A DNA stretch of 64,000 nt from Pseudobdellovibrionaceae bacterium (GCA_023954155.1 JAMLIO010000004.1:436-64435), one strand, 5' to 3'; positions 31,542 to 62,857 are shown, counted from the first letter of the stretch. Program-made: numbers and translations. The notes: generated from the letters alone by a model not told the origin.

Positions 31542-32678
31542 CTAAGGCATTTTTAATTCTTTACAAAATTGGATAAAAGGCAAAACCCTGCCGTTAGGAG
31601 CACTTCCGTAGTCTTGTGTTCCCAGGTGAACTTGATAGAAGGCGGGGATGTCGGTGCGCTCCTTAAAATATTGGATATGTGTCGAGAGCTTTTTTTCTCC
31701 AGTTTTACATTCTACGGCAAAAATGGGTTTTTTGTTTTTTAAAACTACAAAATCTATTTCTCGTCCATCTGTGTCTCTTAAATATCGAAGCTCCATATTA
31801 TAACCTTCGGTGTCTTCAATATAATGACAGAATTTTAAAAGCTGGCTGGCCACTAAATTTTCGAATCGAAATCCTCTTTCATCGACTTGGGACCAATCCC
31901 ATAAGTAATATTTTTGAAGTTTTTTAACGGCTCTGATTTTTTTTGCGCCATAAGGAGCTATCGAAAAGCAATAGTAAAGGTGAGACAAGATTTCTAACCA
32001 ACGTTTAATAGTGGGTTGAGAGACTTGTAAGTCCTCTTCGAGACTTTTTAAAGAAAGTGGGGACCCGACTCTAGACGGGAGAAGCTCTGCGAGTAAAAGT
32101 AAAAGAGATGTGTCTTTAACATTTTCTAAATCATTAAGATCTTCGTAAACAACTTTTTGCATTCGGTCTTTTTGCCAAATTCGGTGTTCGTTCTCATTTT
32201 TTGCAAATAAGGGTTCTGGAAATCCTCCAAATTGAAGTAAATTTTCTAAGTCTTTAGGGGAAGGGTTTTTTTTGTATTCTAAAGCAGAAAATGGATGAAG
32301 GCGAAAATATCTATACCTGCCAAGTAAGGAATCTCCTCCCTTTCTGAAATAATCTAATTTTGCTGACCCAGTTACAATAAACCGATGATCTTCTTTGTGT
32401 TTGTCATATAAACCTTTTAATAAGTTTCTCCATTTTCGATACTTATGAATTTCATCAAAAATGAGAATTTTTTCTTGTAAAGGAAGCTGATTTTTCAAAA
32501 TAAGAGACTTATCTAAGGTGTCATCCCAATTTAAGTAGGATTTGTTTTTAACGGTTGAAGGCGAAACAAAAGCTAAGCTTAAAGTGGTTTTACCCACTTG
32601 GCGAGGACCTCCAATAAAAACCATTTTTTTGTTTAATGCGGATTGAATATGGGGGCTGAGGTATCTTTTTGTTTTCAT
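31542..32678 (-). CDS. AAA-family ATPase with DUF4143 C-terminal domain (COG1373-like)
   Basis: Walker A FIGGPRQVGKTTL, Walker B ILIFDEIH, size of about 380 aa. Confidence 0.75.
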   Translation of the reverse strand: MKTKRYLSPHIQSALNKKMVFIGGPRQVGKTTLSLAFVSPSTVKNKSYLNWDDTLDKSLILKNQLPLQEKILIFDEIHKYRKWRNLLKGLYDKHKEDHRFIVTGSAKLDYFRKGGDSLLGRYRYFRLHPFSALEYKKNPSPKDLENLLQFGGFPEPLFAKNENEHRIWQKDRMQKVVYEDLNDLENVKDTSLLLLLAELLPSRVGSPLSLKSLEEDLQVSQPTIKRWLEILSHLYYCFSIAPYGAKKIRAVKKLQKYYLWDWSQVDERGFRFENLVASQLLKFCHYIEDTEGYNMELRYLRDTDGREIDFVVLKNKKPIFAVECKTGEKKLSTHIQYFKERTDIPAFYQVHLGTQDYGSAPNGRVLPFIQFCKELKMP

Positions 32679-32781
32679 TCAAGACTTCTTCCTTTAAGGA
32701 TTGTGTTTAATAAAGGTATGATAGCGAGAAGGTAGTCTAGCTATCAGTGCCATTACCTACACTTAATACTATTTTAGCGTT

Positions 32782-32848
32782 ATGAGTAGTTTAAAGTCAA
32801 CTTTGAAACACTCATGAGTAGTTTAAAGTTGACTTTAAACTACTCATG
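32782..32848. repeat. Two tandem palindromic units (operator-like)
   Basis: Unit 2 (32813-32848) is CATGAGTAGTTTAAAGT-TG-ACTTTAAACTACTCATG, a perfect 17+2+17 palindrome. Unit 1 (32782-32815) is ATGAGTAGTTTAAAGT-CAA-CTTTGAAACACTCAT, imperfect. The half-site ATGAGTAGTTTAAAGT repeats with a 32-bp period. Confidence 0.85.
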
Positions 32849-33244
32849 ATAAGGTTTGTTCTAAAATAAGACATCGTGGGCCGCATTTTATACTAATCGA
32901 CTTTATCAAGGCCTTTACGGGGTGGTTCCAAGCTTATCTAAAAATATCCGAAACTCAGCATCCATTGTGTGGATGCTTCAATTGCGCTGGATTTAAGCTT
33001 GTACAGATTTTGCGAGGACTTGGTTTTGATTCGTTTGGACTCTTTTATATACGAAATAGAAAAGATGGGTCCAAATATCATCTCATTATGAAGCGGTTTG
33101 GGCTCCTTAATTACCGATTTTGACCTGATCTCGCTTTATATTGGATTACACTAGGGTAATAAAAATCTTTACTTATTATATTTAATAAGTTGTAAGGATA
33201 GGCAACTTGGGTCAATGGCAAGTCAGATTTGAAAGTGCGAAATT

Positions 33245-33553
33245 ATGAAAAGAATGAAAGATGTATTATTAAATGTAGATGATTCAGAGTACACAATTGG
33301 TCAAATGGTGAGAGCTTTTAGAAAAGGGAAAAACTTAACCTTAGAACAAGTGCAAGAGCTAACGGGCATTTCCATCACCAACCTTTCGGCTATTGAAAAC
33401 GATAAAGTTGATCTTGGTGTAAAAAGAGCCAGTATGTTAGCCGTAGCATTTGGTGTTCATCCTAGAGATATCTTATTCCCGAATGACAAATGGGAAAAAT
33501 CTAAAGAAATTCAGAAGATTGAAGCTAGAGCAAGAAAAATGACAGCGGTTTAA
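33245..33553 (+). CDS. XRE-family helix-turn-helix transcriptional regulator
   Basis: IGQMVRAFRKGKNLTLEQVQELTGISITNLSAIENDK is a classic HTH_3 domain. Confidence 0.8.
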   Translation: MKRMKDVLLNVDDSEYTIGQMVRAFRKGKNLTLEQVQELTGISITNLSAIENDKVDLGVKRASMLAVAFGVHPRDILFPNDKWEKSKEIQKIEARARKMTAV

Positions 33554-33556
33554 AAA

Positions 33557-34267
33557 TCAGAGATTTAGCTTTCTTATCCTGTCCCATAAAAGAGCTTCGG
33601 GGATATCCATCTTAAGTGCTGACATGCATTCGTTAAGGCGGCCTCGGCGTTCTTTTAAACTTTCTATGGCTTTGGTGAGATCGCTTTTAATGCTTTCCCC
33701 GTAAGCTTGTTGTGCTTTTCTAATGGCTTGATGAAGCTGAGACGAAGGTATTGTAAGCATGGCCAGATCAATAAGGTCTCTGCTAAAAACACTATCGTCT
33801 GACCAACGATCAGAGTTAGCTAGTAGCTTGCTTGTTGCCATATCAAGCGGAGTCAAAGTGGGTACACCACATACAATGTCCTTAGTGTTAGGGGAGTCTA
33901 AAGAGACTCTTCCTTCAAAAATAATTTCAAACTTAATTTCAACATTACCCTGCTTAATCATGGTTCGAATCCCATATTGATCTGTGCGGACGTCACGAGA
34001 TACATTTATCTGTAAACCTTGGCGAATAAGGGGTGAGAGGTCGTTTTTTATTTTAATTAGCTGTCTTAATTTACGATAACCCTCTAAATCCGATATTAAA
34101 AAATCAATATCCACAGATTCGCGATATTCACCATGAGTTAAGACAATCGCAGTTCCGCCACCAAAAAGACACCCATGTGCTCTGAGTGCTTCAGCATCTA
34201 AAGCTTGGAGGACGGTGGCAATTCGTAAATGATGATCTCTTTTAAACAAGCAGTTTCTCCGTACCAA
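33557..34267 (-). CDS. Nucleotidyltransferase AbiEii/AbiGii-family toxin (DUF1814)
   Basis: CLFGGGTAIVLTHGEYRESVDIDFLISD matches the GGTAL...R.S.DIDF motif of AbiEii-type toxins. 26-nt overlap with the upstream HTH gene. Confidence 0.7.
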   Translation of the reverse strand: MVRRNCLFKRDHHLRIATVLQALDAEALRAHGCLFGGGTAIVLTHGEYRESVDIDFLISDLEGYRKLRQLIKIKNDLSPLIRQGLQINVSRDVRTDQYGIRTMIKQGNVEIKFEIIFEGRVSLDSPNTKDIVCGVPTLTPLDMATSKLLANSDRWSDDSVFSRDLIDLAMLTIPSSQLHQAIRKAQQAYGESIKSDLTKAIESLKERRGRLNECMSALKMDIPEALLWDRIRKLNL

Positions 34268-34739
34268 ATAAAGCCATAAGTTCTTGAATCAGTTTAAGTT
34301 CTTTGGATTCCATTGCATTTAAGTCTATATGACGCCAATTGCGTTCGTACAGATTCAATGCCTCTTCAGGACTAAGTGTTTGAGTTTGTTTAATTTGCCA
34401 TGCCAGCTTTTTTAACTGGGGATATTTGGACAAAGATATTTTACTTTTTTGAGTTAAATTAAGCTTGGAGGTAGACTGTGTTTTTAACTTAGGATCAAAA
34501 AGTTGAAGCTCGAGTCCTAGTACTGAAATCACATTCATGTACGCGCCTATTGTGACCGAGGTTTCGCCTCGCTCAATCCGATCTAAAGTCACACGAGAAA
34601 TTCCTGCGGCCTCTGCAGTGGCTACAGCAGATATTTTTAAACCTTTACGCCGCGCACGTATCTGCTGCCCCAAATGGAGCAGTGTTTTTTTTAATTTAGG
34701 GCCACTTGGCGGTGCTTTTGCTGGCATAATGTATCTCAT
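34242..34739 (-). CDS. XRE-type HTH protein, putative cognate antitoxin/regulator
   Basis: LGQQIRARRKGLKISAVATAEAAGISRVTLDRIERGE HTH plus a C-terminal domain of about 90 aa. The real start may be the second ATG (34727, MPAKAPP...). Confidence 0.65.
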   Translation of the reverse strand: MRYIMPAKAPPSGPKLKKTLLHLGQQIRARRKGLKISAVATAEAAGISRVTLDRIERGETSVTIGAYMNVISVLGLELQLFDPKLKTQSTSKLNLTQKSKISLSKYPQLKKLAWQIKQTQTLSPEEALNLYERNWRHIDLNAMESKELKLIQELMALFGTEKLLV

Positions 34740-42138: not shown

Positions 42139-43365
42139 ATGACAAATATCCTTCTGCTCGAAAAGATTCATTCCATCGCAAAAACTCATTACGAAGCCCA
42201 CGGTTTTCAAGTGACCGAACACGGTCCGTCTGAAACAGGGGCCCCTTTGGTGGGGCTTCTTAAGGGACAAGATATTGTGGGTTTACGGTCTAAAACTCAG
42301 CTCACTGGCGAGGTCTTACAAGAGTCACCCCATCTATCCGCAGTAGGAGCTTATTGTATAGGCACAAATCAAATCGACTTACAAACTGCATGCAAGTTGG
42401 GAGTCGCCGTATTTAATGCCCCTTTTAGTAACACTCGAAGTGTAGCCGAGATGGTGCTAGCCGAGATCATCTGTCTAGCGAGGGGTTTGTTTGCAAAATC
42501 CCAAAAGATGCACGCAGGAATCTGGGAAAAGTCAGCTGCAGGATCAAATGAAATCCGTGGAAAAGTTTTAGGCATTGTGGGTTATGGCCATATTGGCTCC
42601 CAGGTTGGAATTTTGGCTGAAAGCTTAGGCATGAGAGTGATCTTTTACGATGCCATTAAAAAATTACCCTTAGGAAACGCTGAAGAGATGATGACTTTGG
42701 GGGACGTACTCAGTCGTTCCGATTTTGTCACACTACATGTGCCACTGGATAAAACTACAGAGTGGATGATCGGCGAAAAACAATTTTCCATGATGAAAAA
42801 GGGTGCTGCATTTATCAACGCCAGCCGAGGACATGTCGTGCGTTTAGAGGCTTTAAAAAATGCTTTATTAACAGGGCATATATCAGGTGCTGCGATCGAC
42901 GTTTTCCCAGAAGAGCCCAAAGAAAACAACAGCACCTTTGCCCATGAGTTACAAAATATAGAAAATGTCATCTTAACTCCACACATCGCGGGAAGCACGA
43001 TTGAGGCCCAAGAGTCTATAGGAGTGGAGGTCACAGAAAGCCTGATCCGCTTTATGAAAACGGGCCATTCTGTGGGGGCTGTGAACTTCCCACAACTGTA
43101 TTTATCTGAACTGCAATCTGGCTACAGAATCCTAAACGTTCACAAAAACGTGGCAGGAGTCCTAGGGGAAGTAAATAAAATCTTCTCTCACCACAATATA
43201 AATATCTTAAGCCAACAGCTAAAAACCAACGAACAGATAGGGTATTTAGCGGTAGACGTAGAGGGCGCGGTAGACCCCAAAGTCGTAGATGCAATAGCCC
43301 ATCTGCCCACCTCCATCAAAACCCGCTTTCTTGCCAGCGAAGAGTTAGGTTCTAAATTTATTTGA
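42139..43365 (+). CDS. serA: D-3-phosphoglycerate dehydrogenase with C-terminal ACT domain
   Basis: GIVGYGHIGSQVG NAD-binding block, the catalytic-region block TPHIAGST, and an ACT domain. The last 13 codons lie inside palindromic element A. Confidence 0.9.
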   Translation: MTNILLLEKIHSIAKTHYEAHGFQVTEHGPSETGAPLVGLLKGQDIVGLRSKTQLTGEVLQESPHLSAVGAYCIGTNQIDLQTACKLGVAVFNAPFSNTRSVAEMVLAEIICLARGLFAKSQKMHAGIWEKSAAGSNEIRGKVLGIVGYGHIGSQVGILAESLGMRVIFYDAIKKLPLGNAEEMMTLGDVLSRSDFVTLHVPLDKTTEWMIGEKQFSMMKKGAAFINASRGHVVRLEALKNALLTGHISGAAIDVFPEEPKENNSTFAHELQNIENVILTPHIAGSTIEAQESIGVEVTESLIRFMKTGHSVGAVNFPQLYLSELQSGYRILNVHKNVAGVLGEVNKIFSHHNINILSQQLKTNEQIGYLAVDVEGAVDPKVVDAIAHLPTSIKTRFLASEELGSKFI

Positions 43366-43672
43366 AGTTTAAGTTTTGTCTTTGAATTTTAAGTTTTCTT
43401 AGAGATACATCTATCGAATGGCAGCTCCGAGCGAGCAATGCGTATCCGACTTGCGGCATAACTTTTGAATTGAAGTTTAATTTAAGGGAAGCTCCAAAGA
43501 AGTTTCTCTTAAATTAAACTTCAATTCAAGTTATGACGAAAGCCGAGACGCTTTGCACCCGAGTCGGCCTGTCTGCCATTCGATAGATGTATCTCTAAGA
43601 AAACTTAAAATTCAAAGACAAAACTTAAACTTCAAATAAATTTAGAACCTAACTCTTCGCTGGCAAGAAAGC
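43325..43672. repeat. Palindromic element A: exact 100-bp inverted arms around a 148-nt quasi-palindromic centre
   Basis: 43325-43424 is the exact reverse complement of 43573-43672, verified base by base. Inner near-perfect stem 43457-43486 / 43508-43535. Confidence 0.95.
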
Positions 43673-51964: not shown

Positions 51965-53794
51965 TTGGCTAAGATTACATCAAGCAGTACAGCCGAATAT
52001 TTTGCAAAGAACCTACAACAGGTGGGGTTTTCGTCAGCGACTAAAGCTGTTTTAACCACTTTAAAAGAAACAGTGGATAACTCATTAGATGCTTGCGAAG
52101 ATCATAAGATTCTACCTGAATTAAAGATTGAAATCGAAAAGATTGGCACTGGGGGTTCCAAAAGTGCGGATTTAATACGCATTATGGTGGAAGATAATGG
52201 CCCAGGGTTATCGCCAGAAGACCTTCCACGTGTATTTGGCGAGTACTTGGCCTCTTCAAAGTTTGGACGTGGTCGCTGTTCTCGTGGTCAGCAGGGGATT
52301 GGTATTTCTGCGGCCACCACATGGGCGCAGCTCACCAATGCCGCTGGGGCCAAGGTTTTAAGTAAAACAAAGAATATGCGTAAAGCCATAGAAATGCGCA
52401 TTGATGTAGATATCAAATCGAATAAAGGTCTAGTGAAAGATAAAAAGACTGTGGATTGGGACAAAGACCATGGTCTTCGTGTGGAGTTTGTGATTGATGG
52501 TCGCTTGCAGCTTAATGGAGATGGTGGGATTTTAACGTATCTTGAAGGAACCTCACTCGTAAACCCGCATTTAAAATTACATTATAAGATCAACGATGAC
52601 ATTGATGTGAACGTGGATCGCGTAACAGAAGACGTTCCTGTGGCTCCGCCAGCAACCTTACCTCATCCTCATACTATGAAATTGGGTGAGTTTATGACCC
52701 ATGCTCATTTATTTGGAAACGTAAACTTGCAGAAATTTTTAAAAACAGGTTTTTCTCGTGTGACTGATAGTACGTTAAGTGACTTTGTTAAAAATGGAAT
52801 GCCTAAAAAATTCTTAGCTCAGCCTATATCAAAAACTTCGGAGTCAGAATTTAAGGATATTTTTAAGGCTATACAAGAAACAGAGCTGCCTAACCCCACC
52901 ACGCGCTCAGTGCTTACCATTGGGGAAGAGGCTTTAGCCAACAGTATTCAACGTTTAGGTGCCATTGACTTTTTTAGTATTGTCACCCGTAAACCTAAAA
53001 TATGTGACTTTAAGCCTGTAGTGGTGGAAGTAGCCATTGCGAGGTTCTTAGATCGTGGGAAGGAAGACGAAAGTATTCAGCTTTTACGTTTTGCTAACCG
53101 TGTGCCTTTACAATTCGATAAGGCAGGATGTGCGATCACTAAAGCTGTGGAGTCCGTCAACTGGCGTTCTTATGGCCTGAACCAGTCCAAAAATAATTTG
53201 CCTTTGGGTCCTTACATTTTTGCGATCAGTGTAACGTCGCCGTTTATTAAGTTTAAAAACGCATCTAAAGAGACCATTGATTCTAGTGATGAATTAGTGG
53301 AAGAGATTCGTCGCGCGCTGATGCAAACAGGGCAAAAGCTTTCAAGACACATTCGTCGAGAAGCTAAAGCTGCGGATTTAGAGCGAAAACTTCAACATAT
53401 TGAAAAGTTTGGACCTATTTTGGTTCGTGGACTTGTGCAGATTGTGGGTGCGGCTGACAAACGTCGCGACAAAGCCACTGAAGGTTTAGAAAAGATATTG
53501 GGACGTGATACCAACGTAGCAGAAAAAGAATTAGAGGTCGCAGAGAGCCGCTTGCAGGATTTAAAACAAAAAGAAGGTTTTGATTCTAGTGGGTCCGAGG
53601 ATTTAGAGTCTTTCACAGAGAGCGAACAGCTGTCCTTAGATTCATCATTCGATAAAGATTCAAGAAAGATGAGCTCAAAACCCAACAAGAAGAAAAGTAA
53701 GACTTCAGGCAAAAAGGCAGTGAAGAAAGCGTCTTCCACAAAGGCCGCTGCAAAAAAAGCATCTAAGAAAGTGGCAGCAAGACCTAAAAAATAA
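51965..53794 (+). CDS. top6B: DNA topoisomerase VI subunit B (GHKL ATPase + transducer) with Lys/Ala-rich C-terminal tail
   Basis: The N-terminus STAEYFAKNLQQVGFSS...LKETVDNSLDACEDHKILPELKIEI parallels archaeal Top6B. Bergerat-fold N box (ExxxNSLDA), G1 (EDNGPGL) and G2 (GQQGIGISAA) are present. TTG start 8 nt after GGAGG. Confidence 0.8.
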   Translation: MAKITSSSTAEYFAKNLQQVGFSSATKAVLTTLKETVDNSLDACEDHKILPELKIEIEKIGTGGSKSADLIRIMVEDNGPGLSPEDLPRVFGEYLASSKFGRGRCSRGQQGIGISAATTWAQLTNAAGAKVLSKTKNMRKAIEMRIDVDIKSNKGLVKDKKTVDWDKDHGLRVEFVIDGRLQLNGDGGILTYLEGTSLVNPHLKLHYKINDDIDVNVDRVTEDVPVAPPATLPHPHTMKLGEFMTHAHLFGNVNLQKFLKTGFSRVTDSTLSDFVKNGMPKKFLAQPISKTSESEFKDIFKAIQETELPNPTTRSVLTIGEEALANSIQRLGAIDFFSIVTRKPKICDFKPVVVEVAIARFLDRGKEDESIQLLRFANRVPLQFDKAGCAITKAVESVNWRSYGLNQSKNNLPLGPYIFAISVTSPFIKFKNASKETIDSSDELVEEIRRALMQTGQKLSRHIRREAKAADLERKLQHIEKFGPILVRGLVQIVGAADKRRDKATEGLEKILGRDTNVAEKELEVAESRLQDLKQKEGFDSSGSEDLESFTESEQLSLDSSFDKDSRKMSSKPNKKKSKTSGKKAVKKASSTKAAAKKASKKVAARPKK

Positions 53795-53811
53795 TTCGGA
53801 GATAAAAAGAT

Positions 53812-54981
53812 ATGGCAAAGGCAAGAGTAGCAGGATCAGGGAATTCACAGAAAGACATCATTTATAAAGCAAAGGCCATCTGTGAGGGCATGTTAAGTGA
53901 TTTAGAAAAGGCCAAGCGCCCTGTCTTGGAATCTATCAAGTGCAGCTTGGACAATTCAGAATACGACCCAAGGCTTGGGTATTTGACTCCAGCGGGAAAG
54001 ATGGTGCGCTCAGAGTTAAATGTGTCTTCAGTGCAAAAATTAGCACGTACAGTGTTTATGTTAGATATTTTACTTAACAACGTAAATACAGGTGGTGTGA
54101 ACACCAAAAGAGAGCTGTACTATATGGCAAAAGGTTTGGTGAAAAGCGATAAAGAGCTTAAACCCATAGACTTTGATGACCAGAATGAAAGTGACTCCAT
54201 TATTGATTTTATCACGGATATGCTTGAGGTGTATCGCGAAGAGATGAATTGTTTTGCGAATGATCGTGGGGGACAAACTTACTCACAACAGCTTGTGGTC
54301 ACTGAAACTTTAAATGATGGAACTAAAGCTGTTATTGACTTGAGCTCATTAGGTACTACCCCTTTTCAGCCCAAGAACAAACCACAGGCCTTAACATTAA
54401 AGGCTAAAAGTAAAATTGATTTTTGTTTGGTTGTAGAATCAGAAGGTACGGCGAACACTCTGGTAAGTAATGGGTTTACCAAAAGAAATAAGTGTATCCT
54501 GATGGGTGCTCAAGGGGTGCCTAGTAACGGGGTCAGAGGTTGGTGTAAATTGATTCAAGATCAGCTTAAGATTCCTATTTATTTCTTCGGAGATCTGGAT
54601 GCGTACACTCTGCAAAATATTTACAGAACTCTTAAAGCAGGATCGGCTGCGAGTTTGATTCGTAACAAAGACTTTTCCGCTCCAGATGTAAAGTTTTTAG
54701 GAGTTTTGCCTGAAGATATTAAAAAATACGACCTTCACTATTATGATGTGAAGTCTAACGATGCTTCTGAAATGCGAGCTCTTAAAAAAGCCAAAGATGT
54801 TCTTGCTAATGACCCCTTTTTCCAGGATGCAAAAAACAAAAAGGTCGCAAGCATTCTTAACTTTTTGATCAAAAATAGAATACGTTGCGAACAGCAAGCG
54901 ATCTTTAGTGTGGATCCCAAGGACCCCATAATGCCCGAGAAGATCATTCTTAAGAAGATCAAAGAAAAGTCTTGGGTGTAA
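53812..54981 (+). CDS. top6A: DNA topoisomerase VI subunit A (Spo11-like)
   Basis: KRELYYMAKG (catalytic Tyr region of the winged-helix 5Y-CAP). Toprim Glu (VVESEGTANTL) and DxD (FFGDLDAYT). Immediately downstream of top6B. Confidence 0.8.
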   Translation: MAKARVAGSGNSQKDIIYKAKAICEGMLSDLEKAKRPVLESIKCSLDNSEYDPRLGYLTPAGKMVRSELNVSSVQKLARTVFMLDILLNNVNTGGVNTKRELYYMAKGLVKSDKELKPIDFDDQNESDSIIDFITDMLEVYREEMNCFANDRGGQTYSQQLVVTETLNDGTKAVIDLSSLGTTPFQPKNKPQALTLKAKSKIDFCLVVESEGTANTLVSNGFTKRNKCILMGAQGVPSNGVRGWCKLIQDQLKIPIYFFGDLDAYTLQNIYRTLKAGSAASLIRNKDFSAPDVKFLGVLPEDIKKYDLHYYDVKSNDASEMRALKKAKDVLANDPFFQDAKNKKVASILNFLIKNRIRCEQQAIFSVDPKDPIMPEKIILKKIKEKSWV

Positions 54982-55146
54982 AACACCTAGAGCGCTTTGG
55001 ATTTTAGGATCAGTGACCAATTTTGGCCCCGTTAGATGGGGTAGGGCGTATTATTTGGTAAATCCTTGATCTTTAAGGATTTATACGGGTTTTGTGTGGT
55101 AATTTTTGGCGTGCTTTTTGCCTCTGAAGGGGTGGAGGAGCACGGG

Positions 55147-57174
55147 ATGAATAAAAAGCTCAACGTTCTTATTTTGTTTTTGATTTCTGGTTTTTGGCTG
55201 GGAACAGGTTGTGCTTTAAACAGTGCTGATGAATCTCCATTGGGTGATCTGCGCGGGGGACAGACTAACGATCCTGATTACAATGTCAGCTTGTGGCCCA
55301 CGCCAGTAGGTGAGGACCCGAATCCCATGCTCATCGGTGAACTTACAGGTTGGCCCAAAATTGAAAAAGACAATACGGTTTTATTTATTGGGGATCAGTC
55401 GCTACAGGGCAACTGGGGTTTGGCTTTACAAAAACTTTTGGTGGAAGACGAAGAAGCTTCTCTGACTTTATCTGGATGTAATGCCACTGCACAGAGTTGG
55501 AAGTCTGGAGCTGAGGCCAGCTGCTTGTACAGTGCACCGTTTGTAAAATACAAAGAAGGTCGACTATTTTTAACTCAAAATTTACAAGCAGGCACAGACC
55601 GTGCGTTACCCTTAATTCTTGCTCACGAGAATGTATCTAAAGTGGTATTAAGTTTTGGGGCTTATTTGAAAGACATCACTGATGCAAAAATTCTTCAGGA
55701 CGAACTTGTGGCTCTCGAAATTTTAGCAAAATGGGCACACAGTGCGGGAAAGACCTGTTACTTTGTCACCCCTGTAGGGGAATACTTTTTAGAATCTGGA
55801 CAGGTCATTTTACCGATTGAACTTTTAGCACGCATGAAAGTACTTTTAGAGCCTTACTGTTATTGGGTGGATGCCGTCGAAGCTCGTAAAACATTTTTAG
55901 ATGCCACACAAATCAATATTGAAGGCAAAATCACCGAGGCAACACCAGATGACAGTGCTGAACCTTATATTCGTATTGATGAAAAACCACCTGTGGATTT
56001 ACCAAAACTGCCACCTCTGGTTTTACCAGACATGTCTTTAGATTTGTCTGAAGTTCCTGAGATCATTGCTGATAAAGAGAGTCCGATTGCGGGTAGACCT
56101 GAGCCACAAGTGCCAGCCAGTGGTGCCACTGAAGTGCCACCTAAAAAAGAAGAACCTGCTACTGTCCCTGCCACTCAGTCAGAAGATCAACACAAAGAAG
56201 ACCCCGCTACGGTTCCTCCTACTAAGCCTGAGGATCAAAAAGGAGAAGATCCTAACACAACACCTCCTGCTCAGGGTTTGGGGACTACTCCTACGGAACC
56301 CACAGATGAGTCTAGTGGTGGTACAGTGATTCTACCTGATGGAGTAAATCAAGAGATTCCCATTCCACAGCCTCGACCAGATCGAGAGGGTGAAAAACCA
56401 CCTGCCACTGCCGAAGACAAACTGGCGGAAGCCTTAGAGGAACTTGGTCCTGAGAATGTTCCTGTGCCTGCACAGAAACCGAAATTTCTAACAGAAAAAG
56501 ATCAACAGGCCATTCGTGATCAAATTGAAACGAAAACTCCATCAGTGGCGCAAAAAGAAAATAAAGTTATTAAATTCCAAGAGCCCAAATATTTATGGAA
56601 TGGATACGCTCAAGGTTCTAATTATACACGTTATGGTAAAATTGAACTTAAGGCTTACGGCGCTCACTTATATCAAACTAAAAACTTAAGTGATGCGACG
56701 ATGTATTGTCCTAATTATTGGAACTTAGGAGAGGAAGATAAGAAGCATGTGTGGATATATCTTTACTCGGCCATGGCACTCTATGAGTCGACTTTTAATG
56801 CAGGCGCAAGAGCTGTCGAAGTGACTGGTGGAACCAGTATGGGGCTATTCCAGATGGACTATAACAACTGTAAACAATCTGCATCTAAAGCGACAGACCT
56901 TTTAAATGCTCAAGTCAATTTCCGTTGTGCCATCAGAAAATCTGTTTACTTGGTCAGAGAAGGAAAACAGATCGCTAATGGTTCCTATCCTTCAAACTGC
57001 AATCAACAAGGCTGCTCATACCGTGGTGGAGCCATGGACAGATTCTGGTCCACTCTCAGAAAACCCTACCAAGCCAAAATCAGAAACAACAAAGGCCAAC
57101 TAGTAAGTGTCACAGTAGGAAAAAGAAATAAAGTTATTTCTCATCTTAAAAGCTTACCTCACTGTAAGAAATAA
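55147..57174 (+). CDS. Lipoprotein with Pro-rich linker and C-terminal lytic transglycosylase (SLT) domain
   Basis: ATG 55147 after GGAGGA. Lipobox LGTGC. Long P/E/T-rich segment. YESTFNAGARAV...GGTSMGLFQM corresponds to the ES...GLMQ motif of family-1 lytic transglycosylases. Confidence 0.7.
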   Translation: MNKKLNVLILFLISGFWLGTGCALNSADESPLGDLRGGQTNDPDYNVSLWPTPVGEDPNPMLIGELTGWPKIEKDNTVLFIGDQSLQGNWGLALQKLLVEDEEASLTLSGCNATAQSWKSGAEASCLYSAPFVKYKEGRLFLTQNLQAGTDRALPLILAHENVSKVVLSFGAYLKDITDAKILQDELVALEILAKWAHSAGKTCYFVTPVGEYFLESGQVILPIELLARMKVLLEPYCYWVDAVEARKTFLDATQINIEGKITEATPDDSAEPYIRIDEKPPVDLPKLPPLVLPDMSLDLSEVPEIIADKESPIAGRPEPQVPASGATEVPPKKEEPATVPATQSEDQHKEDPATVPPTKPEDQKGEDPNTTPPAQGLGTTPTEPTDESSGGTVILPDGVNQEIPIPQPRPDREGEKPPATAEDKLAEALEELGPENVPVPAQKPKFLTEKDQQAIRDQIETKTPSVAQKENKVIKFQEPKYLWNGYAQGSNYTRYGKIELKAYGAHLYQTKNLSDATMYCPNYWNLGEEDKKHVWIYLYSAMALYESTFNAGARAVEVTGGTSMGLFQMDYNNCKQSASKATDLLNAQVNFRCAIRKSVYLVREGKQIANGSYPSNCNQQGCSYRGGAMDRFWSTLRKPYQAKIRNNKGQLVSVTVGKRNKVISHLKSLPHCKK

Positions 57175-57198: not shown

Positions 57199-57357
57199 GT
57201 CCATTCAGGATTTCTAGGTTCAGTTTATAAATATATAGTGTGAAAATGTGAGTTCGGCTTGGCATGCTTTTGCGAACGCAAAATCATGCCAAACGTCACT
57301 GTCTGAGCATTTTTGCACTATATATTTATAAACTGAACCTAGAAATCCTGAATGGAC
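57199..57357. repeat. Palindromic element B: perfect 42-bp arms around a 75-nt conserved core
   Basis: 57199-57240 is the exact reverse complement of 57316-57357. The core (57241-57315) contains hairpin TTGGCATGCTTTTGCG-AA-CGCAAAATCATGCCAA. Confidence 0.95.
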
Positions 57358-57366
57358 TCAAAGTGA

Positions 57367-57963
57367 TTAGCCCGCAGAGGGGAGGATTTCAAAGATGACG
57401 AGGGTGCGGACTTTGGAGCTGCTTTTGACTTCGTAGATTTCAAAGGCTTTGTCATTAAGGATAAGATGATTTTCTAGGGCGGTTTTTAAAATCTTAGGAT
57501 AAATTTTTATAGCTCCTAGTGCAGGCGAACCATCGAAGGCGCCCATAATATAGGAGTTGAATTTGATCTCATCAACTTTATAGTTGTGACTTTCAAATTC
57601 AGGATTTTGAGTCAGGTGTGTGAGGTCGGTTGCGCTTTCTAATAAGCAACCTACATGACTTCTCAGACGATGATGATCTACACCGCTGGGGTTATCTAAA
57701 TAATATCCAAAGGTGCGTGCACAAATAATTCCATGGGCTTTGGCAAACTCTTCCACCTCTGTGATGTGTGGGGCCACTTCGTGATAGGGGCCCACAACTT
57801 CTTTAAATATAATTTTGTGGGGTCCAAAAGGTGTATCGGTAAAGACGTCGACTTGAACAGGCAAGTGGAAGCCTGCTCGAAAGGCGATAAAAACTAGAAG
57901 ACCAATGATACCTAAAAAAAATCCAGCTACTGTGCCAGAAAACCATTTCATAATTGATTCCAA
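57367..57963 (-). CDS. Membrane-anchored GyrI-like / effector-binding-domain protein
   Basis: N-terminal TM helix. The remainder resembles GyrI-like small-molecule-binding domains (GPYHEV...HGIICARTFGYYLDNP). Low certainty. Confidence 0.5.
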   Translation of the reverse strand: MESIMKWFSGTVAGFFLGIIGLLVFIAFRAGFHLPVQVDVFTDTPFGPHKIIFKEVVGPYHEVAPHITEVEEFAKAHGIICARTFGYYLDNPSGVDHHRLRSHVGCLLESATDLTHLTQNPEFESHNYKVDEIKFNSYIMGAFDGSPALGAIKIYPKILKTALENHLILNDKAFEIYEVKSSSKVRTLVIFEILPSAG

Positions 57964-58661
57964 GGGACGCGAGTTGAATCCCTTAATACCAAATCTCCAT
58001 TGGAAAGCAATTTTTCAATTTCATTTTGAGGCCATTTTTGAAGGGCCGCTAGAATTTTGGTTCGGAGTGTTACAGAAATTTCAGGTTTTGTACACTCTGC
58101 AACCACTTCTTCAAATCGTAATTTGAGTTGAGTCAAAAATTTATGCCAGCGTTCATCAGAAAGCGGGGCAGATATTTCTTCTACAATACTTGTGGCAGGT
58201 CCCACATCGCTAGGAGAATCGTTCACGTTCAAACCAAGACCCACAAAGATGCCATGACGGTTTCCTATACTTACGGATTCAATCAGTAAGCCCGCCATCT
58301 TTTTATCGTCACAATAAATATCATTAGGGGCTTTAATGCTAAGAGTGGCATCAAACTCATCACTTAAAGCTTGAAAGACAGCCCAGCCAAAAAGCGGAAC
58401 TGCAATGGGCTGAGGGGCGGAAGCCAGTGGAAAGCACCAGGTGCTGAGCAGATGTTGGTCCGCTTCTGTGTTGCTCCAGGTTTTATTGCCACGTCCGCGT
58501 CCTTTAGTTTGAACACCGCTCACATACAACCATGGTAAATGGTTGTTTAGAATCCCATCGCGTTTGGCTTGTGAGTTTGTACTGTCGATACTATCAGAAT
58601 AAAACACTTGCATAGAGTTTTTTTCTGCCCAGTCTTTTGTTGATGTTGCTGCATTGATCAT
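57948..58661 (-). CDS. birA: Biotin--[acetyl-CoA-carboxylase] ligase (no HTH domain)
   Basis: QTKGRGRGNKTWS (the GRGRxGRxW motif) and size of 237 aa. Confidence 0.85.
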   Translation of the reverse strand: MINAATSTKDWAEKNSMQVFYSDSIDSTNSQAKRDGILNNHLPWLYVSGVQTKGRGRGNKTWSNTEADQHLLSTWCFPLASAPQPIAVPLFGWAVFQALSDEFDATLSIKAPNDIYCDDKKMAGLLIESVSIGNRHGIFVGLGLNVNDSPSDVGPATSIVEEISAPLSDERWHKFLTQLKLRFEEVVAECTKPEISVTLRTKILAALQKWPQNEIEKLLSNGDLVLRDSTRVPWNQL

Positions 58662-58686
58662 AGTAGTAGCTCCTTCTGGACTCAGT

Positions 58687-59541
58687 TTAATCTAATAAAA
58701 AACTGATGTCAGCACATGGAACCGAATGGGTGATCAATCCTATACTAATAAACTGGACCCCAGTTTCTGCAACTCCGCGCACGCGTTCAAGATTCATATT
58801 GCCACTGGCCTCGGATTTAATATGAGGTGGGAATTTTTTTACACACGTAGCAATCTGCTCGGTGGTCATATTATCCAGCAAAATTTGGTCGACCTTTGAG
58901 GTGAGTGCCTGCTCAAGTTGTTCTTCGTTTTCTACTTCCAGAATGATCTTTTTACGAGGGTAGAGTTCTTTAATTTGATTCACTAAAGTTTTAATGTCTA
59001 GATCGGTGGTTTTGAGATGGTTCTCTTTAAGCATAATGGCATCAGACAAATTCATTCTGTGATTCTGTCCTCCACCATGAACTACGGCATTCTTTTCAAA
59101 AGTTCGTAGCAAGGGTGTCGTTTTGCGTGTATCTAAAATTTTGCAGGGTGTATGGGCCACCTCAGAGACAAACTTCTGAGTTAAAGTGGCAATCCCGCAC
59201 AAACGGCCTAAAATATTTAGGAGAGTTCGTTCTACTAATAATAAATCGGAGTAGTGACCTTGAAGGGTGGCCATCTTATCTCCCTTTTTTATGGAATCGC
59301 CATCGTGATAAAAAAGAGTGGTAGAAATAGGAGCTCTCAGAGCGGCTCTTTGTGGGAGTTCACGAAGAGCGACTAAAAATTCTTCTCCAGAAAAAACGAG
59401 GTCTTGCTTTGCGAGTATGGTTCCACATGATCTGTGGTGAATGTTGGCACAGAGTTTTGATAAGGCCAAGCATGTGACGTCACCTTCGGGAGCGTCCTCC
59501 TCAAGTGCCTGTGATAAGATTTCTAAGGCAGATAATTTCAT
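58687..59541 (-). CDS. nadC: Nicotinate-nucleotide pyrophosphorylase (carboxylating)
   Basis: ILDTRKTTPLLR, GGGQNHRMNLSD and MLKENH blocks. Confidence 0.88.
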   Translation of the reverse strand: MKLSALEILSQALEEDAPEGDVTCLALSKLCANIHHRSCGTILAKQDLVFSGEEFLVALRELPQRAALRAPISTTLFYHDGDSIKKGDKMATLQGHYSDLLLVERTLLNILGRLCGIATLTQKFVSEVAHTPCKILDTRKTTPLLRTFEKNAVVHGGGQNHRMNLSDAIMLKENHLKTTDLDIKTLVNQIKELYPRKKIILEVENEEQLEQALTSKVDQILLDNMTTEQIATCVKKFPPHIKSEASGNMNLERVRGVAETGVQFISIGLITHSVPCADISFLLD

Positions 59542-59543
59542 CT

Positions 59544-60857
59544 TTAGGCTTGTGGAGGTTCTTCTTCAGCTAAAAGTCTCTTTAATTCTTTATCAATCAT
59601 CTGTTTGGCCAGTTCAGGTACAACTTCCCAAATTACGGACTGAAGCATATTTTTGGCTTCTTTATGCACTAAAGCCCGAAGTTCTTCTTTGCTGATTAAA
59701 ATTTCAGTGATGGCCTTAGGATCATTATGCACTGTCTTTTGAGGTACAGGTGGTAAATCTCCACCGTCAGCAGAAAGCTCATCAATCAGCCCAGGATCCG
59801 TCAACTCATCAATACTTCTGTGTTTAATGCTTGTAGCATTGGAAGTCGATGAACTGTCGGAATGAGGATAGACAATATGGTTTCTGATACTGGTGTCCTC
59901 TTTGGCCATTTGTAAAAGCTCGGCCTCTTCTTCAAGGCTTGGAATGGCGGTGACTTCGGGAAGGATGTCATCTTTAGGATCAGGTTGATCATCCAGAGCT
60001 GAAGGAGGTGGAGTGAAATCCAAAGGCACTTCATCGTCTTGCACGTCACCCATCTCAAATTCAGAAGGTCCACTTTGAGCCCAACGGTCGTTAAGGTCTT
60101 CGTCGTAAGAGCCCGTGATATCCAAAGCTTGAAATCCATCAAGTCCTAAATCTTCACTTAAGGAGTCGTCGTCAAAGTCGGATTCCAAGGGAGCATCAAG
60201 GTCAGGATCGGTTTCACTTAAGTTCAATTCTAAATCCACATCGGTGACTTCAGGTTCAATGTCATCATGTAATGAACGAGAATGAAAACTTTCGTTCATG
60301 TCATCATTTAAGCTTGAATCCAAGGCTTGAGGGTCCAAGAAGTCATCAGAAGTCTCTTCTTCTGGGAGGTCCATAGGGAGATCGTCTTTAAATAAAAGAT
60401 CCTCTGTGGGGTCCTTACGCTTGCGCATGGGAGCCGCTGCGGGTTCTGTCTTAGGTTGTGCAGCACTAGTGGGTCTTGTTGTATCTAAAATACGTGGAAC
60501 AAGGCTTTGAATTTTGGATCGAAGCTGGTCATTGGAAAAGGGCTTTTCTAAACGGCCATCAGCACTGCACGCTAGATATTTGTCCTCGTCGATCTCCATA
60601 AAACTAGACCACATCAGGACCACAGGAACCACAGAAAGTTGTGGATGCTGTTTGATCTGAGCGCACACTTCATACCCATTCATTTTGGAAATGAGCACAT
60701 CGGCAAAAATAATATCAGGCTGAAAGCTCTCAGCCACTTCAATCACATCAATGCCGTGTTGAACTGTTTTGATTTCTAAACCTAGATCCTTCAGGCTGAT
60801 TTCAAACACCCTTTTGATCGTAGAACTTTCATCTGCTAATAAGACGCGTAAAGCCAT
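59544..60857 (-). CDS. Response-regulator receiver domain protein with long acidic disordered region
   Basis: The N-terminal REC domain (RVLLADES...IIFADVLISKMNG...KPF) is followed by about 300 aa of D/E/S/P-rich sequence and a short conserved C-terminal helix. Confidence 0.75.
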   Translation of the reverse strand: MALRVLLADESSTIKRVFEISLKDLGLEIKTVQHGIDVIEVAESFQPDIIFADVLISKMNGYEVCAQIKQHPQLSVVPVVLMWSSFMEIDEDKYLACSADGRLEKPFSNDQLRSKIQSLVPRILDTTRPTSAAQPKTEPAAAPMRKRKDPTEDLLFKDDLPMDLPEEETSDDFLDPQALDSSLNDDMNESFHSRSLHDDIEPEVTDVDLELNLSETDPDLDAPLESDFDDDSLSEDLGLDGFQALDITGSYDEDLNDRWAQSGPSEFEMGDVQDDEVPLDFTPPPSALDDQPDPKDDILPEVTAIPSLEEEAELLQMAKEDTSIRNHIVYPHSDSSSTSNATSIKHRSIDELTDPGLIDELSADGGDLPPVPQKTVHNDPKAITEILISKEELRALVHKEAKNMLQSVIWEVVPELAKQMIDKELKRLLAEEEPPQA

Positions 60858-60932
60858 AATCTAAGTTAATGATTATAAAAAAAAAGAGTCAAGACATAAC
60901 AAAGTGTCAAGATATCATATAGACTGGGTTTT

Positions 60933-62012
60933 GTGATTAAACGTATTGATACCTACATTCTGACAAGCTTTTTGACCTATTTTGCGGTCTCTTTATGTGT
61001 GCTCTTAGTGCTGTTTTTATCTGTGGATTTGATGTCTAGTCTTAATAGATTCGAGGTGGGAGGAACTATCCTGCTTTCGTACTACATCAATTATTTACCT
61101 TGGATCGCTTATCATATGGCCCCCATTTCTGCTTTGTTAGCCATGGTTTTTTTGATGACAAGGCTAGTAAAGTCTAGTGAGCTGACCGCCCTCTTTGCCT
61201 CTGGTTACGGACTTTTTCGTATTATAGGGTCGGTCTTAGTTTTTTTAGTGTTTCTTACAGTAGGAATGTTTTGGTTTGGCGACCAAGTGATGCCAACAGC
61301 CATGGATAAGCGTTATTACATTTATTATGTCGAGATGAAAAAAGACCCTAATCGTTATTCTAAAACTCGTCAGAAGAACATCTGGTACAAAACTGAAGAT
61401 GCCATCATTCATTTTAATGAAATTTTAAGCCCTAATAATGTGGCTGGGGTGCAGTTATTTTTTATTGATCCAGAAAGCTGGATGCTGCAAAGCCATTACG
61501 AAGCCAAAAATCTGACTCTCAAGGATGGGTTTTGGGTTCTGGCTGATGGGCAGAAATCGCAATACGACAAGACCTCAGAAAAGTTTCAGGTGAGCGATTT
61601 CAAAGAGGCTGTGCTGCCTGCAGTAACACAAGTCGAAGACATGCAAGTCAGTGGTGAAGCCACAGAAAACCTAAGTCTGAAGGACCTACGGCATCTGATT
61701 CGACAGAATGAACGCATTGGACTGCAAAACCATGACATTAAGGTGATCTATTGGAGCAAATTTTCTTTTGTCCTCACAGCCTTAATCCTCCCACTCCTAG
61801 GACTCTCCATGACTTCCGTAGATCGCAGAGGAGGCAACGCCTTTTTAGGAGCCTCCATCGGCGGCTTTATGGTTCTTGCTTATTGGATTTTATACAGCTC
61901 CACCTTGTCTATAGGAAAAGCCGGTTTCATCCCACCTTTTGCCGCCGCTTTTATGGTCCCTATGTTAGGCTTTATCTTAATAGCAGCGTTGATTCAAAGA
62001 GTCCTCAAGTGA
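60933..62012 (+). CDS. LptF/LptG-family LPS export permease
   Basis: MIKRIDTYILTSFL... N-terminus and a 6-TM YjgP/YjgQ architecture with a periplasmic beta-jellyroll region. GTG start. Confidence 0.8.
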   Translation: MIKRIDTYILTSFLTYFAVSLCVLLVLFLSVDLMSSLNRFEVGGTILLSYYINYLPWIAYHMAPISALLAMVFLMTRLVKSSELTALFASGYGLFRIIGSVLVFLVFLTVGMFWFGDQVMPTAMDKRYYIYYVEMKKDPNRYSKTRQKNIWYKTEDAIIHFNEILSPNNVAGVQLFFIDPESWMLQSHYEAKNLTLKDGFWVLADGQKSQYDKTSEKFQVSDFKEAVLPAVTQVEDMQVSGEATENLSLKDLRHLIRQNERIGLQNHDIKVIYWSKFSFVLTALILPLLGLSMTSVDRRGGNAFLGASIGGFMVLAYWILYSSTLSIGKAGFIPPFAAAFMVPMLGFILIAALIQRVLK

Positions 62013-62022
62013 GTCAAAAATA

Positions 62023-62246
62023 GTCTTGTCTGTAAAAACCCGCAATGCAGTGTTGCGCCTCCCGTTGGGTCTTTGGGGTTTGTTTTTGATTATATATACT
62101 CAAAATGCTCAGACAGTGACGTTTGGCATTCTTTTGCGTTCGCAAAAGAATGCCAAGCCGAACTCGCATTTCGACCATATATATAATCAAAAACAAACCC
62201 CAAAGACCCAACGGGAGGCTCGCGTGCGGGTTTTTAAAGACAAGAC
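62023..62246. repeat. Palindromic element C: 22-bp outer arms + perfect 42-bp arms around a 79-nt core homologous to element B
   Basis: 62057-62098 is the exact reverse complement of 62178-62219. The outer pair 62023-62044 / 62225-62246 matches 21 of 22. The core hairpin is TTGGCATTCTTTTGCG-TT-CGCAAAAGAATGCCAA. Confidence 0.95.
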
Positions 62247-62272
62247 CCAGTTTTTTTGTTACAACAAAGCCT

Positions 62273-62857
62273 ATGGCAGTATTAGAAGTATTATTATATC
62301 CAGATCCGCGTTTAAGAAGAAAAGCTAAACCTATTGAAGCAGTGACTCCTGAAATCCAAAAGATTGCTGAGGACATGCTTGAGACTATGTACCAGTATAA
62401 AGGTATTGGTCTTGCTGCTACACAAGTCGGTTTAGAAATTCGTATTTTAGTGATTGATACACGTCCTCGTGATGACAAAGATAGATATGAACAAGATGGA
62501 ATGACTGAACTTGAAAAGCAAGTGGCTCAGCCTCTAGTCATTATCAATCCCGAGATTGTGGAACAAAAAGGCGAGTCTACATTTGATGAAGGTTGTTTAA
62601 GTATTCCTGGATATTTTGAAACTGTAAAACGCCCAGAATATGTCGAGATCAATGCCCTGAATGAGAAAGGGGAAAAGATCAATATCAAAACCGATGGGCT
62701 TTTAGCCACTTGTATTCAACATGAGATTGATCATTTGGATGGAAAGCTTTTTATTGATCGTTTAAGTGTGGTTCGTGCCACTCGTTTGAAAAATAAGATC
62801 AAAAAGAATGGTTATCCTGATCCTGATGAAGAGGCGGCAGAGGAAGCTGAAGCTTAG
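62273..62857 (+). CDS. def: Peptide deformylase
   Basis: MAVLEVLLYPDPRLRRKA..., EGCLSIPG, HEIDHLDG. ATG 62273. The ORF track start 62123 lies inside palindromic element C and is spurious. Confidence 0.92.
   Translation: MAVLEVLLYPDPRLRRKAKPIEAVTPEIQKIAEDMLETMYQYKGIGLAATQVGLEIRILVIDTRPRDDKDRYEQDGMTELEKQVAQPLVIINPEIVEQKGESTFDEGCLSIPGYFETVKRPEYVEINALNEKGEKINIKTDGLLATCIQHEIDHLDGKLFIDRLSVVRATRLKNKIKKNGYPDPDEEAAEEAEA

Follow-up and report, generated by a model that had tools for sequence, protein, structure and literature searches.

The hairpin at 57199-57357 raises a question about how a palindrome is inherited. It lies in a window (the whole stretch of DNA that was analysed, 64,000 nt) that holds a second hairpin with nearly the same centre, and on a first reading the arms of the two looked unrelated. 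Which part of such an element is passed on, the centre or the whole hairpin, and what might it do? The two hairpins, here called elements B and C, belong to one family of palindromic intergenic repeats, 145-165 bp long. The family is previously undescribed and has an unusual conservation pattern; its class is a familiar one, and it is not a new kind of system.

Two copies in one window

The earlier note had reported that B and C share a 70-nt core in opposite orientations, and that the arms around it are perfectly self-complementary. Both observations are borne out. The reverse complement of the B core (57244-57313) aligns to 62102-62171 without gaps and with 66 of 70 positions identical, and 42-nt perfect inverted arms surround both cores. 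The 22-mer CTCAGACAGTGACGTTTGGCAT is common to B and C and occurs twice in the window, against an expectation of 0 (100 shuffles). Three of the four core differences fall in the 16-bp apical hairpin. Each whole unit is a single long hairpin, with fold z-scores of -16 and -18 against dinucleotide shuffles. The parts are as follows, sense being the better-pairing strand.

57199-57357 (sense +): element B, the complete hairpin with its perfect arms; covariance model R1 gives 109 bits on + and 45 bits on -
57199-57240 (unstranded): B distal left arm, 42 nt, perfect complement of 57316-57357
57316-57357 (unstranded): B distal right arm, 42 nt, perfect complement of 57199-57240
57243-57313 (+): B conserved core, made up of closing stem, two loops and apical hairpin
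57243-57249 paired with 57307-57313 (+): B closing stem AAAATGT/GCATTTT, part of the core
57250-57258 (+): B 5' loop GAGTTCGGC, part of the core
57259-57292 (+): B apical hairpin, part of the core
57293-57306 (+): B 3' loop ACGTCACTGTCTGA, part of the core
62057-62219 (sense -): element C, the complete hairpin with its perfect arms; R1 gives 111.9 bits on - and 46.6 bits on +
62057-62098 (unstranded): C distal left arm, 42 nt, 100% complementary to 62178-62219
62178-62219 (unstranded): C distal right arm, 42 nt, pairs with 62057-62098
62102-62172 (-): C conserved core, loops invariant and as in B
62123-62156 (-): C apical hairpin, a 16-bp perfect stem, part of the core

Further copies and their distribution

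Element C lies between lptG and def, and the corresponding intergenic region was recovered from three relatives through their LptG homologues. Nearly all the available sequence of relatives is in short Logan or ENA contigs. One of them (L020, an 84% relative) has an element at the same place, with its core in the orientation opposite to that of C and with 25-bp perfect arms of different sequence. In L010 and others (82% relative) the lptG-def spacer is 93 nt long and lacks the element. The closest relative (L009, LptG 99% identical, DNA 90.9%) has a contig that ends about 28 nt into the C left arm. Inverted repeats longer than k stop a k-mer assembler, and palindromes of this kind do break short-read assemblies: relatives' contigs end about k-1 nt inside the arms.

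A further copy was reached through protein space. Four of the six reading frames of the core are open, and a profile of these four frames searched against a protein database led to a spurious 55-aa ORF (P0014) in an ENA assembly and from there to the copy L021. This copy (L021:1662-1810) has the same core, 35-bp perfect arms and a position between a ferritin gene and a convergent GST gene. Other spurious ORFs also arise from the element. The L021 'protein' is called at L021:1677-1844, and in the window C gives rise to a 154-aa antisense ORF (62014-62478, -) and to a false N-terminal extension of def by 50 residues (62123-62857, +).

The known set thus comprises four full copies (B, C, L020 and L021) and one partial orthologue (L009). 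The copies occur in at least three organisms and all are intergenic; two of the copies lie within the 64-kb window. An origin as a SMRTbell-type adapter or assembly artefact was rejected, since three independent assemblies show the same architecture and the copies differ in sequence.

Wider searches added nothing to this set. A gapped core pattern gave eight matches in the GTDB representative genomes (which do not include the source MAG), all random by inspection, while two patterns found no match in JGI metagenome contigs or in viral contigs, and blastn with the core found none in plasmid and phage collections. An exhaustive profile search of 1.84 billion representative proteins with the core frames returned no further copy; a match there, P0135, is an unrelated tandem-repeat protein. 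Covariance model R1, run on the window and about 160 kb of relatives' contigs, recovered only the four known copies, and the copy density is low (0 in about 90 kb of other relatives' contigs). The earlier note did not recognise any described repeat family here, and Rfam yields no family at either threshold tried: only a tRNA elsewhere in the window passes the gathering threshold, and at a permissive one only generic long-hairpin miRNA models appear, far under their cut-off (51.8 vs 140 bits). In the public data, the family is seen only in a small clade of uncultured Bdellovibrionaceae.

Anatomy of the hairpin

The hairpin can be described in four layers. Outermost is the distal stem of 25-42 bp, which is perfectly Watson-Crick. 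Next come a proximal stem of about 12 bp and the closing stem AAAAUGC/GCAUUUU, where G·U pairs are tolerated. The third layer is an invariant asymmetric internal loop (5' GAGUUCGGC, 3' ACGUCACUGUCUGA) and the fourth is a covarying apical stem of 15-16 bp. Across the four copies the 71-nt centre shows little or no variation: none is seen in either loop (5' GAGTTCGGC, 3' ACGTCACTGTCTGA) or in most of the apical stem.

Covariation was assessed on an alignment of the core plus 12 nt on each side in the four copies, with the structure specified by the analyst. Standard pairs fill 97.0% of cells and eight pairs are changed on both sides, a level of covariation reached by none of 500 shuffles. As a control, sliding the partners by 1-3 columns lowers pairing to 32-52%. 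The compensatory stem change that had been noticed between B and C is part of this pattern. One apical pair (columns 36/55) takes three forms, being G-C in B, U-A in C and A-U in the two further copies. The idea of a real hairpin family with selection acting on its structure therefore stands, because the covariation beats every shuffled and slid control.

One clue to the form in which the element acts is that its two strands do not pair equally well. The strand that reads AAAATGCGAGTTCGGC... has G·U as its non-Watson-Crick pairs, at eight distinct sites (11 cells). On the opposite strand G·U is found at one site, the others become A·C, and pairing is 89.6% rather than 97.0%. The difference between eight sites and one corresponds to a two-sided binomial p of about 0.04, based on four copies only, and with so few full copies the orientation and strand statistics are weak. 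The sense fold is the more stable one by 3-17 kcal/mol in 4/4 copies. This asymmetry points to a functional single-stranded form of one strand, either RNA or ssDNA. G·T is the least harmful mismatch in ssDNA hairpins too, so the pattern does not distinguish RNA from ssDNA. The strand-specific G·U bias fits both the structured RNA and the DNA hairpin that had been proposed for B and C.

The sequence of the centre appears to matter as well as its pairing. The core loops are 100% identical in the four copies while the arms have drifted to about 50-80% identity, which argues for purifying selection on the core sequence. The identity extends across organisms, at least three in number, that share only 84% identity in LptG. 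Invariant loops between drifting arms imply sequence-specific recognition of the hairpin tip.

The apical hairpins of C (62123-62156) and B (57259-57292) also hold promoter-like motifs. TTGGCA-N17-AAGAAT (AATCAT in B) is found on both strands and is sigma-70-like at 9/12 positions. A TGGCAT-N4-TTGC motif resembles the sigma-54 -24/-12 elements. Neither match is conserved in L020 or L021, and a sigma-54 promoter in the apical stem was rejected, the spacing being one base short of consensus. Several other identities were tried and discarded. No intrinsic (bidirectional) terminator is called at B, and at C the only ones called are small hairpins in the outer flank and not the element itself. There is no U-tract or T-run after the hairpin arms in B, L020 or L021. 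A small protein gene fails at a stop codon in B that breaks the only ATG-led frame across the core. Readings of the loops as a hammerhead, a twister or a K-turn found no consensus fit and no Rfam support.

The arms are related

The earlier note had described the arms as unrelated in sequence between loci and specific to each locus. This did not survive the comparison with further copies. With blastn, the whole L021 element, core and arms, can be aligned with both C (81% over 144 nt) and B (75% over 150 nt). Alignments of the arms alone give z=6.3 for C and L021 and z=5.7 for B and L021 (matched by 0/2000 shuffles each), and z=3.5 for L020 and L021. The arms of C and L021 are identical at 31/39 positions and differ by a 5-nt indel. 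Judged by these alignments, the arms are diverged homologues, less conserved than the centre, and not locus-specific. Distal arm identity between copies is about 50-80%, and the termini are the least conserved part: it is the outer ends of the arms that differ most (GTCCATTCAGG, GCCTCCCGTTGGG, GGGAAATTAAG and CGGCCCATTGGGG). Because the arms are homologous across loci and organisms, the main 25-42-bp arms must travel with the core.

The identical length of the B and C arms had also been taken as a property of the element. The perfect distal stems are in fact 42 bp in B, 42 bp in C, 25 bp in L020 and 35 bp in L021, so the equality of the first two is a coincidence. What all four do share is perfect complementarity of the distal stem. 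This means that every difference between arms, indels included, is mirrored on the other arm. The argument that the element is the inverse of a MITE loses its original basis, since it rested on locus-specific arms and the arms prove to be homologous and to move with the core.

How the stem is shaped

How can a long stem diverge and remain perfectly paired? Part of the answer may lie at C, where a second, outer pair of arms is found.

62023-62044 (unstranded): C outer left arm, 22 nt, 95% complementary to 62225-62246 (one mismatch)
62225-62246 (unstranded): C outer right arm, in ancestral flank DNA that L020 and L010 also have, conserved, upstream of def

Aligned with L020 or L010, the window loses homology at about 62015 and regains it at 62225-62230. 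The outer left arm therefore lies in an inserted stretch with no counterpart in relatives, and it is an inverted copy of the conserved right flank, which was apparently its template. Together these observations suggest that the palindrome grew by copying flanking DNA.

Template switching between the arms of an inverted repeat is known to homogenise arms, to expand them and to invert spacers (PMC8604942; PMC13100816). RNA hairpins, too, can be created and maintained through template switching (PMC8794818). The process, also known as quasipalindrome correction, predicts arm perfection in one step, extension into the flank, multi-base compensatory changes and spacer inversion, and the footprints of all of these are seen here. 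Replication template switching between the arms would thus account for the perfect arms, the growth into the flank, the mirrored indels and the flipped core, and selection against stem mismatches would then filter its products. However, template switching is a mutational process and not an element family, and it leaves both the invariance of the 70-nt tip and the spread to new loci unexplained.

The core is flipped between relatives at one and the same lptG-def site, as a comparison of C with L020 shows. Was it inverted in place? A test for in-place inversion of the C core by asymmetric outer-flank homology was not significant. The boundaries of the perfect stems carry a few shared bases. With the upstream gene drawn to the left, TTG lies 0-2 nt from the left end of the stem in 4/4 copies, and TC directly follows the right end in B, C and L021 (3/4 copies). 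The sites are 57196-57198/57358-57360 and 62054-62056/62220-62221 in the window, L020:4377-4379, and L021:1659-1661/1811-1812. The outer boundary of C thus matches that of the other copies although its core is reversed, which hints at an in-place flip of the core; the hint consists of few bases and is not significant. The earlier note had offered an invertible segment as one interpretation. Half of this stands, in that the core does occur in both orientations, even at one lptG-def site. The other half does not, because there is no recombinase gene nearby and an evolutionary flip suffices.

Position in the genome

All copies start 11-44 nt past the stop codon of the upstream gene. B and L021 fill gaps between convergent genes, whereas C and L020 lie between lptG and def; the neighbours of B and C are housekeeping genes. 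At B, the right arm ends 9 nt from the stop of the convergent gene (57367-57963, -). In 3/4 copies, namely B (upstream gene 55066-57174, +), L020 and L021, the better-pairing strand has the same sense as the upstream gene. In C it is the minus strand, antisense to both neighbours (lptG, 60933-62012, + and def, 62273-62857, +).

A measure of constraint is available from L009. Its identity to the window is 90.9% overall and 88.9% at the third codon positions of lptG. Over 62013-62084, comprising the outer flank and 28 nt of the C arm, 71/72 positions are identical. At the average divergence between window and L009, one mismatch or fewer in these 72 nt after the lptG stop has a probability of about 0.009. 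The comparable part of C is therefore more conserved than synonymous sites in this relative of 91% nucleotide identity. A promoter-bearing intergenic region of 75 nt nearby (60858-60932) is 100% identical, so the conservation of the C flank reflects constraint that is not unique to the element. Divergence from L009 is uneven along 58580-62084, with 87.1% identity in a response-regulator gene, 88.9% in a nadC-like gene, 95.6% in lptG and 98.6% in the post-lptG flank and arm.

What the element might do

The preferred reading, held tentatively and by analogy, is that the element would be a co-transcribed 3'-UTR hairpin acting as a protein-binding, processing or stabilising element. It would work single-stranded on its sense strand, most likely as RNA, carried by the upstream gene's transcript at its 3' end. 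A protein would recognise the invariant loop, and the long perfect duplex would serve as a processing or stabilising hairpin. The models for this are the Correia and ERIC repeats, co-transcribed hairpins that are handled by RNase III (Correia) or, depending on orientation, by RNase E (ERIC) (PMC2229807; PMC2649163). An observation that does not fit well is that the sense strand of C is antisense to both of its neighbours and yet its core is intact, which is awkward for an RNA that acts purely in cis from a 3'-UTR. The intact antisense core would be easier to explain if each copy were transcribed on its own, as a stand-alone small RNA gene with its own promoter (for example a long-hairpin regulatory RNA) and not as a 3'-UTR passenger. 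The promoter-like match in the apical hairpin, present on both strands, and the AT-rich TATATA boxes that flank the core would be in keeping with this. However, that match reaches only 9/12, lies inside a covarying stem and is not conserved in L020 and L021, the B hairpin has no terminator after it, and no Rfam family matches; a family of independent RNA genes is accordingly judged improbable. A contender that is unlikely but deserves real weight is a REPIN-like non-autonomous element. Here the hairpin would form in ssDNA at the replication fork, its tip would be bound and cut by a Y1/HUH transposase (of the RAYT or IS200/IS605 TnpA type) encoded elsewhere, and it would be copied to new intergenic sites. 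The homologous copies at unrelated loci in different organisms (the ferritin-GST gap of L021, lptG-def and a third site in the window) are what one would expect, as are the two orientations, and the strand-specific pairing bias fits an ssDNA hairpin as well as an RNA. REPINs are themselves long hairpins with compensatory changes, but their REPs are conserved at both ends and their centre is variable (PMC3116915), whereas here the ends are least conserved. In addition, the 30 window ORFs that were scanned contain no Y1/HUH, transposase or reverse transcriptase domain, the density of copies is low, and no empty-site or excision pair is similar enough to mark the ends, L010 being too diverged. 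A RAYT is not known from the host clade.

The remaining explanations concern the palindrome more than its function. It could be a selfish or neutral by-product, in which terminator-like hairpins were enlarged by template switching without any function and the shared core reflects only recent common descent. Large lineage-specific palindromes do occur at convergent gene ends, both in element A (see below) and at the serA-glcD junction in relatives, and arm expansion is seen at C. Nevertheless, loops that stay 100% identical in four copies while the arms diverge to about 50-80% require purifying selection, and the strand-biased G·U pattern would be unexpected, so that this explanation seems quite improbable. 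The model put forward on first reading, of a mobile 70-nt core whose arms are newly built out of local DNA every time it inserts (for instance by fold-back copying of the target), draws on the perfect complementarity of every distal stem, on the outer arm of C being inverted local flank and on the overlap of an element A arm with the 3' end of serA. It is contradicted for the main arms by their homology across loci and organisms. Only the outermost 22 nt of C look locally derived, and the model must be regarded as very doubtful. Hardly credible is a programmed DNA switch in which the arms are recombination sites and an invertase flips the core to control the neighbouring genes. The two core orientations, including those at the lptG-def site of the window and L020, are the one observation in its favour. 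Set against this, no recombinase or invertase gene adjoins B or C, the arms vary in sequence and length between copies as invertase sites do not, each assembly has one orientation, and template switching or RecA-mediated arm exchange explains a rare evolutionary flip (PMC8604942).

Comparison with known repeat families

Several known families resemble this one in part. REPINs are likewise intergenic multi-copy hairpins of about 100-160 nt that are predicted to fold in ssDNA or mRNA, keep their stem by compensatory changes, occur in either orientation and persist vertically within a lineage (PMC3116915). They are REP doublets mobilised by RAYT transposases, the genes of which usually have the repeats on either side. 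The feature of a hairpin with compensatory changes across copies is plainly present here (97% paired, eight double-changed pairs). However, REPINs have two highly conserved ends and a variable central spacer, whereas in this family the centre is invariant and the ends vary most; REPs conserved at both ends of a less conserved spacer are not found in the four copies.

The Correia repeats of Neisseria (CREE, NEMIS) are similar in size at about 100-155 bp and have inverted repeats and a conserved core, and they are transcribed together with adjacent genes into long stem-loops bound or cleaved by RNase III (PMC2649163; PMC2229807). They differ in having conserved terminal inverted repeats of 24-26 bp and a TA target duplication, while neither conserved termini nor a duplication was found in the present family. 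There is no sequence similarity between the two, and the IHF-site consensus is not conserved in the family core. ERIC/IRU, YPAL, RU-3 and RPE are also imperfect-palindrome repeats (100-170 bp) in transcribed intergenic DNA, and the effect of ERIC on the stability of upstream mRNA depends on orientation (PMC2229807). The stems of these repeats are imperfect. In contrast, the distal stems of the present family are perfect over 25-42 bp, with differences and indels mirrored. Again there is no sequence relation, and the host clade is another one.

The repeat is short (<300 bp), non-coding, multi-copy and intergenic, as are MITEs, the elements such as Correia, ERIC and RUP that depend on a DDE transposase. 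It lacks the conserved terminal inverted repeats to which the transposase of a MITE binds, the outer arm ends being what differs most. The flanks of the four copies share no direct repeat, with boundaries that are loosely set and a sole empty site (L010) that is too diverged. The conservation pattern, with an invariant centre and drifting ends, is thus the reverse of that of REPINs and classical MITEs.

Element A and other palindromes of the window

A third palindrome, element A (43325-43672), had been suggested as a distant member of the family. It is a 348-bp near-perfect palindrome with 100-nt arms (100% complementary) and a 148-nt quasi-palindromic centre that includes an inner hairpin of 29 bp (43465-43529). 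The suggestion finds no backing. The covariance model gives A 22.9 bits, against 22.3 bits for an unrelated hairpin at 32781-32849, and so scores it as it would any AT-rich hairpin. When its centre is aligned locally to the family, the result is no better than chance (best z=1.9, 52/1000 shuffles). Element A may nevertheless reflect the same stem-building process as the B/C family. The last 12 residues of SerA (FLASEELGSKFI) come from its left arm; relatives lack them, and their SerA ends 3-5 residues past a conserved TSIKTR. The arms of A carry a TTTGAA(G/T)TTTAAGTTTT motif twice in tandem, at a spacing of about 20 nt.

The serA junction is unsettled in relatives too. Four independent contigs of 80-86% relatives end 15-37 nt past the serA stop (L022:11203-11240; L023/L024:11206-11221; L025:5834-5849), as happens when a k-mer assembly reaches a long inverted repeat or a repeat of another kind; these breaks suggest that long inverted repeats like the palindrome of A are present there as well. 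At the same junction, only a hairpin of 20-26 bp is found in more distant relatives. In a 73% relative (L027:7183-7208/7316-7341), an 85% inverted repeat of 26 nt bridges the convergent pair of serA and a FAD-oxidase gene, overlapping the last serA codons and the stop of the opposite gene, with 107 nt between its arms.

A smaller palindrome lies at 32782-32849, where two tandem 32-nt palindromic units (ATGAGTAGTTTAAAGTCAACTTTGAAACACTC) form a palindrome of about 66 nt. The surrounding gap of 566 nt separates an AAA_14/DUF4143 ATPase gene (31542-32678, -) from an HTH gene (33245-33553, +), and the locus adjoins an AbiEii toxin gene and a second HTH gene (33557-34739). This palindrome may be an operator or a small accessory islet. 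Elsewhere, at 51965-54981, the window carries adjacent genes for both subunits of topoisomerase VI, namely subunit B (609 aa; Topo-VIb_trans, HATPase_c) and subunit A (389 aa; TP6A_N, Toprim). The enzyme is found mainly in archaea and eukaryotes and is not common among bacteria.

Implications

With an invariant centre and drifting ends, whatever factor recognises the element must read the hairpin tip. This invites a more speculative thought, itself improbable, that the family is a hairpin replicator or RNA module turned 'inside-out': its invariant tip, made up of the asymmetric loop and the apical stem, would be the part that is recognised, in place of the ends, and its stem would drift yet be kept perfect by self-templated copying. 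In one form it could be a new class of non-autonomous element handled by a hairpin-specific enzyme. In another it could be a 3'-UTR hairpin from which a double-strand-specific RNase frees a discrete structured RNA about 100 nt long, a process that would recall the maturation of pri-miRNAs.

Whichever reading applies, the family adds a repeat from a poorly sampled lineage of predatory bacteria. It is also a clean natural case of long stems that diverge and yet stay perfectly paired, and as such it could serve to measure template switching in bacteria.
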